DNA of 11,745 nt from a virus (taxonomy: Duplodnaviria; Heunggongvirae; Uroviricota; Caudoviricetes): IMG/VR virus record IMGVR_UViG_2778261203_000004; one strand, written 5' to 3'. Below the pieces are notes generated by a model. The model saw only the letters and a list, made by a program, of their open reading frames with translations, ran no database searches and was not told the DNA's origin. Shown piece after piece: positions 2,795 through 8,163 of this stretch. Position numbers and translations under genes: made by a program. The stretch's first letter is position 1. The number at the start of each line of letters is the position of its first letter.

Positions 2795-5387
2795 TTGCAT
2801 ATTCCTTAGCCCAGCGGGGCAGTGATAATGTCTTAATAGCTGGCCATTCATCGGTATTCAGGCAGTCAGACAGGGTTCGCAGATTGCGGTGATATTCCTG
2901 TTGACCTGCCAGTTTTGCTTCTTCGCCCATCATGAAAATTTCAACCGGATAACGTCCGCATTCAATAGTTGTGCTGGCAACCAGAAAAACGAAAGTTGGC
3001 TGCACTCCAAACTGTGCTTCATAACCGTCACTGTAGAATGCATCCTGAACGTGATAGCGGTAGTCGTAATAAGCGGTTTTGAATCGTTGAATATCCGCCG
3101 TAGTTTTCACGTCCATGATCCAGTGAAATTCAGGGATAATTTTGTCCGGACGGCACCGACACAAAATTCCTGTTTCAGGATCTTCCCAGTAAATTGATGA
3201 TTCAGCGTGTCCGGCGCTTTCAACAAGCCATTGCCCCAGCGGCAAAGCCATAACGCTTTGATACATGAGTTCAATTTTCCGGCCTTCTTCCGCAGTGATA
3301 ACCGTTTTTCCTGTGCTTGCGCATTCCATCAGAAACGCTTTCTCTTCTTCTTTTCCGGCGTTTGTACGGCGGTTAAATTCAGGTGCTACGATAAAGCGGT
3401 TACTGAATTCTTCCGGTTCAAGTACCCGGCAGTGGAAAGCAGTTCCTAAATCGAGCGTTTTTGTCTTTGTGGTGTCCACGGGGGCATTTTTACGCCACAA
3501 ATATAGTGCCGGAGTATCAGCAATGTCATCGAGCTGAGACTTACTGATACCGGGACCCGCGTGGTAATTCTCATTCGAAATTCCGTAATAAATACCTGGC
3601 TCTATGTCTTCTACGATTACGGGATCTGCGACTTCGCCAGTTTCATCACTGCAATCGCGATGCGGATCGCTGCCAGCATTCTCATTGTGCGGATGTTCAG
3701 CGCCTTCCATTTCCTCCGGATCATTTTCCTTAGCTTCAACCTGACTCTCTTCATCGAATGTTTCCTGGTATGTTGCGTCGCCCATCACCGCACCACAGTC
3801 AGGGCAGTTATCCCCGCCAGTCTGGCCGCAGGCATTGCAGGCTATTTCCGGTTCCTGTTGCACTACTGGCTCAGGTTGATTCATATCCGGGCTGGTTTTT
3901 TCCGTTTCTGGCTGGTTCTGGTACACACAATCGCGAGTCTGGATCCCCTTTACCCATTTCGGATCGTTCGGGTCGCTAATTCCGTCAACAAATTCATCAC
4001 GTGATGCAGCAAGCAATTTATCGGCATCGACAGGATTTTTTGATGGAATGTTTTTCCGGGCTTCATGGAGTTCTGCCCGCAGTTCCTGATATTTCGCATC
4101 AACAGAATTTACCTGTGACTGAGCATCCAGCGGCTGCGTGTCCTGATGATGTTCAGTTGCGTCCGGTTCCATTGTTTCAGCCTCTCCCTGTTCAACTGCC
4201 GTTGTTCCAGATGGTTGCGGTTTTTCTTCATCATCCTGTTTTCCTTCTTCTGTTACTCGCTGCGGCATCGGGGCAGAGGAGCGACCGCAGGCAATATCCA
4301 CGATTTCCGGATCAGGGTTGGCATGATCGGTTTCAGTCAGTACTTTGTTCAGATATTCAGTGACGTGCGCGGGGATGACCTCGATCCCAATTGGTGCTTC
4401 TTTTACGGACGCAACCACGATGGCGCGGGAATAATCCAGCCCGCCAGGCATGGTGATGAATTTGTCGCGGAAAACAGAAAAGGGCGGTTTATTTTCAGCG
4501 ATAATTTCCTCAATGCGTTTAGCGTGTGCCGGATGAAGGTTATAGATGTCCAGATCCATTGAACGGGCCAGTACGCCAGTGGCTACGTCGCGCGCCAGTG
4601 ACGTCAGATCGTGTACGAAACCTTCGCCGCGATCGGTGAGGTTTCCGCCGCCAGCATTAGCACCGGAAGCCGTGCGAGTGATGTGTGAAACACGATTACC
4701 CTTCATCCACTCTTTTGTCAGCAGTCCTCGATCGGTGTAGTCAGCGTTCAGGTATGCTTCGAAAAAAGCAGTTATCAGTCCCAGGTTTGAATTACCAGGA
4801 TTAGGGAAAACTTTGTCAGTGTCACGAACCAGTTTGTGGAGTTCGCGAATTTCCAGCGGGTCGAGCAGGCTGGTTTTGTGGGAAACAGCCAGGGCAGTAA
4901 CAGCCGGTAGTTCTTCAGCCCGAGCAATGTGTAATGCCTGGAGTCCGTCGCGTGAAACGTGCGTTACCGGTTTTTCGCTGCCGTGTTGAGCAAGCCAACG
5001 AATGGGCAGTTCCTGGCCAGAAATTGGGAGTAGCATATTCTCCTCAATCTCAGTCATGTCTTCGCCGTTGACGTTGGTATTGCCTTGATAGTGAGCGTTG
5101 TCTGGTGCTGCTCCCGGTTTTAGTTCCCATGTCATGGAGTCTTTGCTGAGTTGATAGCGTTCACTCCAGGTAAAATCGATCTCACCTTCAGCGGGCAGGT
5201 CATTAACGACAGGAAAATTCGTGGCAACAGCTTTAAAATAGCTGCTCAGTTTTTTACCTGACTTAACGATCAGGTAGTCCAGAGTGGCACAGGTCGATTC
5301 AAAATCGTTGCTTGCCCACAGGACGACGTCAGGTTCACCGGATGATTTTTTCGCTTTCCGTAACAGGAAGAGTGGTTTTGTGCTCAT
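2787..5387 (-). CDS. recE: RecE exonuclease VIII (866 aa)
   Basis: Single 866 aa ORF; GAGG Shine-Dalgarno upstream of ATG at 5387. Long acidic, low-complexity N-terminal and central region, then a C-terminal nuclease region. Directly upstream of recT with an 8 nt overlap. Confidence 0.9.
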
Positions 5388-5837: not shown

Positions 5838-6008
5838 TTAAAGTTCATGTGCCATCTGGTCTTTTTCGGCACAAGCTTCACTGCAATATTTTCTCGGTTC
5901 GTCTTTTGATAAAATCCCGTGCATGAAGTGAAGCATTCTTTCAATAGCTTTGCTTTCTTCAACGTCTTTTTTGCAAAGGTGGTAAGCACATTTTATTTTC
6001 TTAGTCAT
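5838..6008 (-). CDS. ydaE: Small Cys4 putative zinc-binding protein (56 aa)
   Basis: Below the 60 aa cut-off of the ORF track. My hand translation of the complement from 6008 gives [56 protein letters not shown], stop at 5838-5840. Cys at positions 7, 12, 42 and 46. The ATG overlaps the kilR stop as ATGA; GGAG sits about 9 nt upstream. Confidence 0.7.
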   Translation of the reverse strand: MTKKIKCAYHLCKKDVEESKAIERMLHFMHGILSKDEPRKYCSEACAEKDQMAHEL

Positions 6009-6229
6009 CACCATGACTCCGCCTTTACAGGTAAACCATCACGACCGAGGAAGACTTTAATCATGCGGTCAGTAATGCATGTTTTTGTGGTCAGGTTACG
6101 AATATATAGTTTTCGCTTTTTAATATTGTTTGCCGAGGCAATATATGTCCGGCCTTCATGAAGAACATAATCGCCAGGAGTCACACACTGACGTGGTATT
6201 TCATCAGTTCCGAAGTGATGTGCAATCAT
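6008..6229 (-). CDS. kilR: KilR, prophage Kil-type cell-division inhibitor (73 aa)
   Basis: [46 protein letters not shown]...; ATG at 6229 preceded by TGGAGAT. The track ORF starts 4 codons further upstream without a ribosome-binding site. Confidence 0.8.
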
Positions 6230-6404
6230 AATTATCTCCATTTTTACAAATGAACTTTGTTGATGCGGTGCCTGGTGCCTCCAGGTGACTGCAACCAGTT
6301 AACAATTACAGTCGGCTTTCCCACCCAAACCAATAAGGACTAACATGACTTTTAACTGTGCCACGTGCGCTTAGCCGCATTCACCGCATCACAAAATTCA
6401 CTTT

Positions 6405-6452
6405 AAAAAGGGCGGACATCAGCCGAACTTCAAGAAAAAAACTGATGCCGCC
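6405..6452 (-). terminator. Candidate imperfect stem-loop followed by a T5 run on the minus strand, inside the kilR-sieB gap
   Basis: Minus-strand reading: GGCGGCATCAG - about 19 nt loop - CTGATGTCCGCC, then CTTTTTAAAG. The stem has one bulge and the loop is long for an intrinsic terminator, so this is weak. Confidence 0.25.
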
Positions 6453-6670
6453 AGGACTACACACAGCAATGTCGTTATTTACAACCGGAGGCGCACTCCC
6501 ACCATTTAAATTTAACAGACAAGACCGACTCTTTATGGATATCGGAAATGCGCCTTCGTGTTGTGCCCGGTTTTATTTCACCACCTCCGGGCTTCGGTGG
6601 TCTCGGCTATACCCCTACAGCGAGAGCTTGTGTTAACATTTCAATACCCTTACAGTTGAGAGTTATTGAT

Positions 6671-7159
6671 ATGTTGGATGTATTTACTCCATTGTTGAAA
6701 CTTTTTGCTAACGAGCCACTCGAAAGACTTATGTATACGATTATCATTTTTGGTCTCACTCTCTGGCTGATACCGAAAGAGTTTACTGTCGCATTCAATG
6801 CTTATACTGAAATACCTTGGCTCTTTCAGATTATCGTTTTTGCCTTTTCTTTCGTGGTCGCCATTTCCTTCTCAAGATTGCGAGCACATATTCAAAAGCA
6901 TTATTCATTACTGCCAGAGCAACGAGTATTGCTTCGTTTATCTGAGAAAGAAATCGCTGTATTTAAAGATTTCCTTAAAACAGGAAATCTTATTATCACT
7001 TCTCCTTGCCGTAACCCGGTTATGAAAAAATTAGAACGGAAGGGCATCATTCAACATCAGAGTGATAGCGCAAACTGTTCTTATTATCTCGTCACCGAAA
7101 AATACTCCCATTTTATGAAGTTATTCTGGAACAGCAGGAGTAGACGTTTTAATCGTTAG
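6671..7159 (+). CDS. sieB: SieB superinfection-exclusion membrane protein (162 aa)
   Basis: Start taken at ATG 6671 (MLDVFTPLLKLFANEPLERLMYTIIIFGLTLWLIP...), not the track's upstream ATG at 6548. Two hydrophobic helices (TIIIFGLTLWLI; WLFQIIVFAFSFVVAISF). It is the only + strand gene inside the leftward block. Confidence 0.8.
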   Translation: MLDVFTPLLKLFANEPLERLMYTIIIFGLTLWLIPKEFTVAFNAYTEIPWLFQIIVFAFSFVVAISFSRLRAHIQKHYSLLPEQRVLLRLSEKEIAVFKDFLKTGNLIITSPCRNPVMKKLERKGIIQHQSDSANCSYYLVTEKYSHFMKLFWNSRSRRFNR

Positions 7160-7311
7160 CTTACTGTGTGCTTCTCCAACCATCGGCGCGCACCAGTTTC
7201 GGTTTTAAATGTTTTGCTTTTGGTATACGTCATGGCAGTGAACGTTCCATCCTGGTTGGGGAACACGCCGCACACCAGGGATTCGTTGTTGCCGAGGTCG
7301 ATTTTTTGCAT
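7156..7311 (-). CDS. ydaF: Small hypothetical prophage protein (51 aa)
   Basis: Below the track cut-off. My translation of the complement from ATG 7311: MQKIDLGNNESLVCGVFPNQDGTFTAMTYTKSKTFKTETGARRWLEKHTVS, stop at 7156-7158. Converges on sieB with a 4 nt overlap. Weak ribosome-binding site. Confidence 0.55.
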   Translation of the reverse strand: MQKIDLGNNESLVCGVFPNQDGTFTAMTYTKSKTFKTETGARRWLEKHTVS

Positions 7312-7321
7312 TTTGCGAATC

Positions 7322-7456
7322 TCACATCTTGTTGCTACGTATAGCGACTTCTGCCTGCCAGAGATCCCAGTCGTTGCTGCGTAAAGCCTGCACAGCCTGG
7401 TTGTAAGTGATACCGCAACAATCCATCAAATACTGAACTACTTCGTAATGCACCAT
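7322..7456 (-). CDS. ydaG: Small hypothetical prophage protein (44 aa)
   Basis: Below the track cut-off. My translation from ATG 7456: MVHYEVVQYLMDCCGITYNQAVQALRSNDWDLWQAEVAIRSNKM, stop at 7322-7324. AAGGGGA about 12 nt upstream. Sits 10 nt upstream of ydaF. Confidence 0.55.
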   Translation of the reverse strand: MVHYEVVQYLMDCCGITYNQAVQALRSNDWDLWQAEVAIRSNKM

Positions 7457-7619
7457 CTTATCTATCCCCTTAACGCCGGGTGGCGGAACTAACTGCTGCA
7501 CTGCAAAATTTGAATCCCGCCGTCATGTTCATACGCCTCGGGCTGGCTACTTAACCCCTGACCACTGCCTGGTAACTCGAAGTATTGCCCGGCGTTCTGT
7601 GGGGCGGGGTGGGTTGGTA

Positions 7620-7672
7620 GGTATATAATGTACTTTGTGTTCATCATTGTAAAGTACTTTAAGTACATTTTA
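7620..7672. promoter_or_regulatory. AT-rich block with three GTACT-core sites; candidate leftward promoter/operator region
   Basis: ATGTACT at 7628-7634, palindrome AAGTACTT at 7652-7659, AGTACAT (ATGTACT on the minus strand) at 7662-7668; TATAAT at 7623-7628. Lies between the racR 3' end and the ydaG start. The same ATGTACT heptamer occurs twice in the racR-ydaS control region. Confidence 0.35.
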
Positions 7673-7743
7673 TGTATAAAAAAATGAGACGGGATAAAGT
7701 GAAGCACAAACCCGGAGGGGGACGCTACCGGATTTATGCTGGT

Positions 7744-8163
7744 TTAAGAGGCTTTTTGTTTTTTCTTTCGTGCTAACTCTTCGTAAATTGCATTGTACTT
7801 CTGTTTTTTCTCCTCAAGAGTTTTTAAAAGTTCATCTGTCTCACTGTCAGGGAGCTCGTCCAGAAGGTCAATGATGATTTTTTGTCTTGGATTTAACTCC
7901 TGATAGAAACGTATCTGTCCACTTTCTTCTGTATCCTCTCCCAAAAGATAGGTTGGTGTTGTTCCAATGAGTGTTGCTAATTCCCTTAATTTCTCTCGGC
8001 GAGGAATTGTTTCACCATTAAACCATTTGCTAACCGCTTTTGGTGTTAATTTCATTCGACGGGCAATTTCTGCCTGCCTTCCATGTTGTTCATAACCAGC
8101 GTTTTCACAGGCTAGCGCAAGCCTACTGGCGAACTCTTTACGCGCTTTATCTTCATGAACCAT
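7744..8163 (-). CDS. racR: RacR, CI-like prophage repressor with helix-turn-helix (139 aa in this sequence)
   Basis: Helix-turn-helix segment RQAEIARRMKLTPKAVSKWFNGETIP. No ATG, GTG or TTG lies in frame between 8163 and the upstream stop at 8218-8220, so the ATG at 8163 is the only start. No obvious Shine-Dalgarno, so it may be translated from a leaderless or short-leader mRNA. Confidence 0.85.
   Translation of the reverse strand: MVHEDKARKEFASRLALACENAGYEQHGRQAEIARRMKLTPKAVSKWFNGETIPRREKLRELATLIGTTPTYLLGEDTEESGQIRFYQELNPRQKIIIDLLDELPDSETDELLKTLEEKKQKYNAIYEELARKKKQKAS

Follow-up and report, generated by a model that had tools for sequence, protein, structure and literature searches.

A candidate regulatory RNA module upstream of kilR in the Rac prophage: the small RNA KilS on a DicF-type scaffold and an STnc100-type leader

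Between the division-inhibitor gene kilR and the gene sieB, the Rac prophage of Escherichia coli carries a 441-nt interval that lacks any feature in the RefSeq annotation of genomes identical or 99.8% identical to it. We analysed this interval (positions 6230-6670) in an 11,745-nt stretch of DNA, referred to as the window in the rest of the text, from the IMG/VR virus record IMGVR_UViG_2778261203_000004. The window covers the left half of the E. coli Rac prophage. Many E. coli chromosomes match the interval at 100% identity, and K-12 matches it at 99.8%. No other unannotated stretch of the window is as long, the runner-up spanning ~240 nt (7502-7743). A first-pass annotation, made from the letters of the window, had described it as a gap poor in open reading frames (ORFs) and containing three hairpins. 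All three hairpins were found where it had placed them, and RefSeq sets the start codons of kilR and sieB at 6229 and 6671, with nothing annotated between them, which bears out the gap itself.

The RNA described at this very position is KilS, which was predicted by RIL-seq (sequencing of RNA pairs joined by ligation) with Hfq under the label 'sieB.kilR.IGR' (Bar et al. 2021, PMC8175672). In the same study, northern blots gave a KilS signal in the wild type that was gone in an hfq deletion and that built up in stationary phase; the study also gives the size of KilS, and yncL was the target named for it. The supplementary tables of that study list a KilS transcription start site (TSS) at 1418502 (Table S6, from Thomason 2015) and an RNase E site inside KilS at 1418471 (Supplementary Table 6, from Clarke 2014). 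KilS is described there only as a small RNA (sRNA) derived from the kilR 5′ untranslated region (UTR), with no mention of DicF, STnc100 or RprA. The reference genome NC_000913.3 annotates an ncRNA kilS (b4833, 'small RNA KilS') at MG1655 1418405-1418502 on the minus strand.

Each of these three other RNAs offers a point of comparison. DicF lies upstream of dicB in the Qin prophage, and RNase III yields a 72-nt form of it that extends 19 nt past the 53-nt end (Faubladier 1990, as cited in PMC5069750). STnc100/PasD are prophage sRNAs found mostly near Q or stx, in late regions (bioRxiv 10.64898/2026.05.13.724894). RprA is a core-genome, Rcs-controlled sRNA whose processed form is its last 47 nt (PMC9262595). 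The literature that we searched mentions neither a relationship of KilS to the DicF chassis nor one of its seed to that of RprA. A dicF-like sequence in Rac may already have been noted by Faubladier and Bouche in 1994.

We consider it very probable (roughly 0.85) that the gap is, on the minus strand, a compact module of regulatory elements in the Rac early-left region, made up of KilS and then a structured kilR leader. The core of this finding, KilS, has been described before and carries an annotation in the reference genome; the finding is thus real but largely known.

KilS and the DicF-type scaffold

With window coordinates equal to MG1655 coordinates minus 1,412,000, the elements of the KilS part of the module are the following.

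6405..6502, minus strand: KilS sRNA, 98 nt (MG1655 annotation mapped onto the window)
6509..6517, minus strand: putative KilS promoter, an extended -10 element TGtTAAATT at -15 to -7 from the TSS at 6502, read from the sequence, with no good -35
~6500-6487, minus strand: 5′ hairpin of KilS
6471, minus strand: RNase E cleavage site within KilS (literature site mapped onto the window)
6470-6455, minus strand: KilS seed, AUUGCUGUGUGUAGUC
6452-6411, minus strand: KilS terminator, with its U-tail at 6410-6405

On the minus strand, the first-pass annotation had noted an imperfect stem with a T5 run after it (about 6405-6452) and had listed a small RNA among its candidates. That suggestion was right, as the stem is the intrinsic terminator that ends the annotated KilS. 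Its arms, GGCGGCAUCAG (6452-6442) and CUGAUGUCCGCC (6422-6411), are followed by CUUUUU (6410-6405), and the hairpin alone has a predicted energy of −19.5 kcal/mol. Folding of the 101 nt from 6500 to 6400 on the minus strand gave a z-score of −3.7 against shuffled sequences. The TGtTAAATT motif, which probably is the KilS promoter, is kept in all KilS-type relatives among the loci compared. Cleavage by RNase E at 6471 corresponds to a processed KilS form of ~66-67 nt whose 5′ end is the RprA-like seed discussed below.

The 98-nt KilS query is 100% identical in K-12 derivatives and was found at a coverage of at least 80% in 1760 of 5426 complete E. coli genomes, about a third. Among ~60 listed E. 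coli records carrying KilS, kilS was unannotated in all, MG1655 being the sole annotated record that we met. The RefSeq pipeline probably leaves KilS blank because both related Rfam models score just under threshold. In an Rfam scan run at a relaxed threshold, the DicF and STnc100 models both matched the minus strand below their gathering scores, DicF at 6465-6410 over its full model length (39.1 bits, gathering score 48, E = 2.5e-6) and STnc100 at 6408-6222 (35.5 bits, gathering score 47, E = 2e-5).

Alignment of the Rac minus strand with the K-12 Qin dicF-dicB region revealed nearly identical terminator arms (GGCGG.AUCAG and CCGCCC followed by U5). The ~170 nt from the terminator to the start codon of the division inhibitor are also nearly identical, with ~85-90% identity over the conserved parts. 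As regards membership in the DicF family (RF00039), the Rac element therefore has the terminator and the downstream spacer and falls short of the gathering threshold. The ftsZ-pairing region of DicF (UUUCUGGUGACG) is missing, and CAUUGCUGUGUGUAGUCC stands in its place in Rac, the single-stranded 5′ parts of the two RNAs being unrelated. Both RNAs lie immediately upstream of a prophage cell-division inhibitor gene, and each depends on Hfq and carries an RNase E site 5′ of its seed. They differ in that KilS has its own mapped TSS whereas the 5′ end of DicF arises by processing, and in that the gene downstream of KilS is kilR, not dicB.

Among IMG/VR loci sharing the same 3′ arm of the terminator, we found three sRNA heads, namely DicF, KilS and a third type. 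These heads are joined to one and the same leader and, downstream, to the gene for DicB, to that for KilR or to a third gene. We saw most of the nine possible pairings of head and gene; we could not confirm that of the third head and the third ORF. The third seed reads CAUGUUGAUUACC and the third gene product begins MLNVAIENQNGW (five of the IMG/VR loci provide examples). Judged by sequence comparison, the DicF and KilS modules appear to be a recombining modular family of which the Rac gap is one member.

The kilR leader and expression of kilR

Past the terminator, the minus strand continues into a structured domain that ends just before kilR. Its elements are as follows.

6242..6404, minus strand: structured kilR 5′ leader, an STnc100-type domain of ~160 nt (Rfam, Qin homology, fold and homologues)
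6402-6382 with 6270-6249, minus strand: closing helix of the leader, 21 bp
6378-6374/6368-6363, minus strand: small hairpin
6362-6360/6316-6314, minus strand: three-pair helix around a hypervariable insert
6313-6304/6296-6287, minus strand: stem I
6285-6281/6275-6271, minus strand: stem II, CCUGG-AGGCA-CCAGG
6236..6239, minus strand: kilR Shine-Dalgarno GGAG, read from the sequence, 6 nt before the ATG at 6229
6008..6229, minus strand: kilR coding sequence, 73 aa (RefSeq annotation of the identical and 99.8%-identical genomes), the gene downstream of the leader

The GGAG lies just 3′ of the closing helix. Folding of 188 nt on the minus strand (6412-6225) gave a z-score of −5.7 against shuffled sequences. 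For a set of 30 distinct leaders (the window and 29 phage loci), the RNAalifold consensus consists of five helices with 44 pairs. Pairing is kept in 98.8% of the cells of this table of pairs and leaders, compared with 33-42% when the partners are slid by 1-3 columns, and cells in which both partners have changed number 12, compared with 2.3 ± 1.3 in shuffled data (0 of 500 shuffles reached 12). The structure conservation among relatives by which the first-pass annotation had proposed to judge the interval is supported for the leader in these closely related homologues. Compensatory changes fall in stem I and the closing helix, mostly in stem I, which occurs as GGCGUUAA/UUAACGUC, GACUGUAA/UUGCAGUC or GGCAUUAA/UUAAUGUC.

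The short CCTGG/CCAGG hairpin that had been noticed at about 6271-6285 is stem II, the most conserved stem of the leader, with pairing kept in 98.7% of the cells across the 30 homologues. Direct enumeration in the fetched phage loci, in a search that required the loop AGGCA, yielded 121 stems of the type CCUGG/CCAGG, 39 of the type CCGGG/CCCGG and 6 of the type GGUGG/CCACC. The loop is constant in the enumerated instances, and only locus L024 (AAGCA) deviates among the independently collected leaders. A MAFFT alignment of the two-stem element mis-registered the GGUGG-type stems and was set aside for the pair counts. One locus, L058, is a recombinant whose stem I combines a Rac-type 5′ arm with a Qin-type 3′ arm and has two mismatches.

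Part of the leader (window 6388-6264) also occurs in unannotated DNA of the P1-like phages P7 and D6. The leader was further found at 80-85% identity in records labelled Actinobacillus phage vB_Apl-pPE4 and Aeromonas phage AP1, unexpected hosts for an E. coli lambdoid module; in one of these two records it is accompanied by kil.

The domain shares with STnc100 (RF02076) a closing helix of the form GGUG...CACC and the internal hairpins, including a longer stem before CCNGG-AGGCA-CCNGG; the same hairpin and closing helix are present in L154, a bona fide STnc100 that scores 61.8 bits, whereas the Rac domain stays below the gathering threshold. The Rac domain also differs in lacking a 3′ terminator of its own, which in STnc100 ends an sRNA of ~200 nt; it leads directly to the kilR ribosome-binding site, and a search for terminator-like sites there found none. 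What comes after the domain in both Rac and Qin is a ribosome-binding site with its gene, in place of a seed and terminator, and the domain lies in the early-left region, not near Q or stx. From its place in the sequence, the STnc100-type domain of Rac and Qin appears to serve as the 5′ leader of a gene.

Stem I and stem II are separated by a single unpaired A, and the domain can be compared with the put sites of HK022. Like put, it consists of two stem-loops one nucleotide apart in the early leftward operon of a lambdoid phage without an N-dependent system. If it worked as a put-like cis antiterminator, the two stems would bind RNA polymerase, and transcription would resist Rho-dependent and intrinsic termination across kilR-ydaE-racC-recET. 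A constant loop on covarying stems is what a shape-specific ligand would select, the domain heads the early-left operon in many lambdoid prophages such as SfV, Rac has no N homologue, and kilR expression depends on Rho/NusG status (PMC5793797). However, the fetched putL and putR are unrelated to it in sequence (judged by eye), and the STnc100 model found no match in HK022 at E ≤ 10. The domain also lies directly upstream of terminators that evidently work, ending predicted sRNAs, and in late regions near Q and stx2, where an early-operon antiterminator would be out of place. Moreover, the Rac element follows an sRNA terminator and not pL directly, and any function would be assigned by analogy. 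We therefore rejected membership among the put sites and retain put as a functional analogy of low probability.

As for the expression of kilR, its start lies 176 nt beyond the end of the KilS terminator, and a promoter scan of the minus strand between them (6404-6230) detected no promoter-like site, suggesting that kilR mRNA most likely arises by read-through of that terminator. An attenuation site for leftward transcription had been among the first-pass candidates: the terminator is indeed present upstream of kilR, and its action as an attenuator of kilR is plausible, not proven. The level of kilR mRNA rises when OxyS lowers NusG (PMC5793797), an effect that fits termination control upstream of kilR without locating that control; the papers on Rac transcription factors and on OxyS and kilR contained no transcript map of this interval. 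The end of 72-nt DicF maps to the 5′ arm of the closing helix (column 25 in the alignment, ~6391 in the window), and by analogy RNase III may cleave the closing helix of Rac as well.

A terminator and small conserved hairpins downstream of an immunity region and upstream of early-left genes could also recall the nutL/tL1 interval of lambda, to which the gap had been likened on first inspection; boxA and boxB would then recruit an N-like protein and Nus factors for read-through into kilR-recET. Lambda nutL is defined by a boxA resembling CGCUCUUA, a boxB hairpin with a GNRA-like pentaloop and an N protein, and none of these was found. The boxA pattern YGCTCTTWA, with one mismatch allowed, is absent from the minus strand at 6230-7744, that is, between the racR-like repressor gene (7744-8163) and kilR, and its matches across the window are at the level expected by chance. 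The conserved loop is AGGCA, not a boxB-type G...A pentaloop, the upstream small ORFs are YdaF (DUF1391) and a YdaG-like ORF and not an arginine-rich N-like protein, and the terminator belongs to a mapped sRNA with its own TSS. The lambda-type explanation is thereby largely refuted, and we give it almost no weight.

A seed shared with processed RprA

The segment of KilS directly 5′ of its terminator matches RprA at 24 of 25 aligned bases (AAAUAACGAcAUUGCUGUGUGUAGUC), including an exact run of 16 nt, AUUGCUGUGUGUAGUC. The local alignment of the two RNAs scores 40, compared with 14.1 ± 2.1 for shuffled sequences (0 of 2000 reached 40). In both RNAs the shared run stands directly before the terminator and at the 5′ end of the processed form. 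Since processed RprA consists of the final 47 nt of the RNA, it starts at the same AUUGCUG as the KilS seed, and the RNase E site of KilS (6471) lies at the position equivalent to this processed end. The Rfam RprA model (RF00034), whose gathering score is 70, gave a match of 28.1 bits (E = 2), which is not membership by covariance model; this weak match is due to the 16-nt exact run. The likeness is confined to the seed, as the terminator and the 5′ two-thirds are unrelated and no alignment with RprA extends into the upstream and 5′ parts of KilS. KilS is moreover encoded by a prophage and driven by another promoter, and no rpoS-activating region is evident in it.

The two RNAs also have a partner in common. 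yncL is an Hfq-dependent partner of both KilS and RprA, and it is among the RprA partners common to RIL-seq and TRIC-seq (bioRxiv 10.1101/2025.09.11.675593). Sites for the shared seed are predicted in the yncL 5′ UTR (−37 to −15), just upstream of the ribosome-binding site, and in the 3′ UTR (+106 to +119), just before the yncL terminator (locus L006, 12040-12390, minus strand); RIL-seq lists yncL and yncL.EST3UTR as separate entities. Full-length duplex folding against yncL gave meaningless long duplexes and was replaced by seed-restricted folding with shuffled-seed controls, in which 6 of 1000 shuffled seeds paired as well, placing the shared seed above 99.4% of them. These predictions suggest that KilS may use the shared seed.

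The motif GCUGUGUGUAGUC-N-UGGCGG followed by a terminator was found in prophage regions of at least 15 Enterobacterales genera. Three structures can precede this seed module: a KilS-type promoter with the 5′ hairpin, an STnc100-type two-stem element ending in CACCACAAC, and a pseudoknot-like element ACCACC..CCUG..GUGG..CAGG. RprA itself carries ...GAAACAACGAAUUGCUGUGUGUAGUCUUUGCCC.

Several further observations concern these seed matches. The terminator stems after the RprA-like seed are highly variable in the GTDB and IMG/VR loci (GGCGGUACC.., GGCGGUCGGCAG.. and long extended hairpins). Matches in non-enteric Chryseobacterium, Nanosynbacter and other metagenome-assembled genomes have full enterobacterial prophage-like flanks and look like contamination; those in Donghicola, Thermomonas and Burkholderiaceae have unrelated flanks and are probably due to chance. 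ATG-containing variants of the seed were considered as leaders of small ORFs (MFCRG...) and rejected, folding having placed the ATG inside an extended terminator hairpin ending in CCGCCCUUU. One contig, L127, carries an STnc100-like domain with an RprA-like seed and also, at 4878-5066 on the minus strand, a C4 antisense RNA (80.7 bits) beside isrK (61.2 bits), the immunity RNAs of P1/P7 type thus neighbouring an Hfq-binding prophage sRNA.

We tentatively suggest, at somewhat less than even odds, that KilS is a functional mimic or an evolutionary relative of processed RprA, built on a DicF-type chassis with the seed exchanged. Rac could then feed into the envelope-stress and biofilm regulon of RprA or compete with it (yncL and possibly csgD, dgcM and further targets of RprA). 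KilS would be the K-12 member of a large modular family of Enterobacterales prophage RNAs whose interchangeable heads, seed GCUGUGUGUAGUC, GGCGG-type terminators and STnc100-type domains would be reshuffled by recombination, and the core-genome RprA 3′ module may derive from that phage family or have been copied by it.

Together, these elements lead us to propose the following sequence of events for the module. Transcription would start at 6502 from the extended -10 element (~6517-6509), and most transcripts would end at the terminator, at 6405. A cut by RNase E at 6471 would expose AUUGCUGUGUGUAGUC as a single-stranded 5′ seed, by which KilS would pair with mRNAs, yncL being the recorded partner. 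Transcripts reading through, either from the KilS promoter or from farther upstream, would enter the multi-helix leader and become kilR mRNA. The closing helix would pair the nucleotides just past the terminator with those just ahead of the kilR ribosome-binding site, and RNase III would cut it at ~6391, as in dicF-dicB, thereby separating a longer KilS form from a kilR mRNA whose 5′ end would be trimmed to just upstream of the GGAG. The KilS terminator would act as an attenuator for the toxic kilR, and the module would be a paralogue of the Qin DicF-DicB module in which the seed has been swapped for one identical to that of processed RprA. Within this scheme, KilS with its ends, Hfq dependence, TSS, RNase E site and partner yncL was established by published experiments; the homology to dicF-dicB, the STnc100-type structure of the leader with its conservation and the seed identity with RprA come from the present analysis; attenuation, the RNase III step and use of the shared seed are inferred.

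A number of points weigh against parts of this scheme. KilS had just 3 RIL-seq interactions and a low sRNA score of 0.15 (PMC8175672), suggesting that its trans-acting role may be minor. Assignment to the DicF and STnc100 families is based on synteny and pairwise homology, not on curated thresholds, both Rfam matches being below their gathering scores. Double changes occur in just 4 of the 44 leader pairs, most helix positions being invariant, and the covariation comes from closely related homologues, so that it is supportive and not conclusive. Read-through and RNase III cleavage in Rac are proposed by analogy only, and a weak kilR promoter, invisible to a simple scan, is possible. The predicted pairing with yncL is only modestly better than that of shuffled seeds. 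Finally, the validated pairings of RprA with hdeD and narP involve nt 30-70, its central region, which overlaps the shared segment only partly.

The sieB side of the gap, the surrounding prophage and implications

The right-hand part of the gap, upstream of the KilS promoter, faces sieB on the other strand and contains the features below.

6671..7159, plus strand: sieB coding sequence, 162 aa (RefSeq), the right-hand border of the gap
6518..6625, minus strand: conserved block upstream of the KilS promoter (comparison of homologous loci)
6581-6585/6596-6600: repeat S1, CCACC/GGTGG, the third hairpin of the first-pass annotation
6565-6570/6587-6592: repeat S2, GCCCGG/CCGGGC, which overlaps S1 as an alternative pairing
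6358-6636, plus strand: 92-aa ORF with a GTG start (mechanical ORF list)
start at 6548, plus strand: 203-aa in-frame extension of sieB with 41 extra codons (mechanical ORF list)

The CCACC/GGTGG hairpin is present at 6581-6600, and its local fold is no better than those of shuffled sequences (z = −0.96 on the minus strand and −0.32 on the plus strand), nested folding revealing nothing unusual. S1 and S2 interleave in the topology of a possible H-type pseudoknot with an A-rich third loop. S2 has a variant form, CCUG/CAGG, in which both of its sides differ, and S1 never varies. The interleaved-repeat element matched no Rfam family.

In six loci the block is retained with other genes in the place of sieB, the stretch to the right of 6625 being replaced, which ties the block to the KilS side and not to sieB. 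The mapped TSS at 6502 lies downstream of the block, and hence the block is not part of KilS itself. The same interleaved element occurs in other phages 10-15 nt upstream of a seed and terminator, on the same strand (seven loci).

These observations bear on whether 6503-6670 is mainly the promoter and 5′ UTR of sieB, with CCACC/GGTGG as a plus-strand sieB element, an explanation compatible with the KilS-leader module at 6230-6517. sieB needs a promoter, 6503-6670 is the sole non-coding DNA upstream of it, and the interleaved repeats can pair on the plus strand too. However, a sigma-70 scan of the plus strand over 6503-6670 found no consensus match of at least 9/12. The block up to ~6625 stays with the KilS promoter, only 6626-6670 co-varies with sieB, and in other phages the element stands on the strand of the sRNA. 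We thus did not locate the sieB promoter that the first-pass annotation had entered among its candidates, and we regard a sieB function for the repeats as rather unlikely.

The two ORFs of the mechanical list show that the statement that only ORFs of under 25 codons are present was not literally right, and they raise the question of a small protein, either the 92-aa product or a 203-aa SieB. Although both ORFs exist mechanically, Pfam gave no match for the 92-aa ORF, for an antisense 63-aa ORF or for the 41-aa SieB extension. Within the 203-aa form, the Pfam SieB domain starts only at residue 62, which is residue 21 of the 162-aa form and 20 residues after the annotated start, and the 41-codon extension (6548-6670, plus strand) overlaps the conserved minus-strand block, suggesting that the annotated 162-aa start at 6671 is the better one. 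The 92-aa ORF is antisense to KilS and the leader, where conservation follows RNA pairing (changes tolerated as G-U and compensatory pairs), and relatives carry other sequence to the right of 6625. A coding function for the gap is accordingly very improbable.

The genes of the window follow the order intR, recT/recE, racC, ydaE, kilR, sieB, ydaF, a racR-like repressor gene and ydaS/ydaT-like genes. The immunity region differs from that of K-12, as a 139-aa helix-turn-helix repressor (7744-8163, minus strand) is encoded instead of the 158-aa RacR, and a 59-aa ORF (7322-7501, minus strand) takes the place of the 44-aa YdaG of K-12. The kilS-kilR module is essentially identical to that of K-12 despite these different immunity genes, suggesting that it was exchanged independently of them.

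KilR is a toxic division inhibitor, and leakage of its gene bears on the essentiality of Rho and NusG and on how cells recover from oxidative stress. With an sRNA terminator and a conserved leader of RNase III type placed before kilR, there is a specific site at which its control can be sought. Should the shared RprA seed be functional, it would connect a cryptic prophage directly to a core envelope-stress regulon, and KilS would be a case of phage sRNA evolution by seed swapping on a fixed scaffold. With its DicF chassis, its STnc100-type leader and its RprA seed, KilS is a case in which the exchange of seeds between a prophage sRNA scaffold and a core regulon can be tested.

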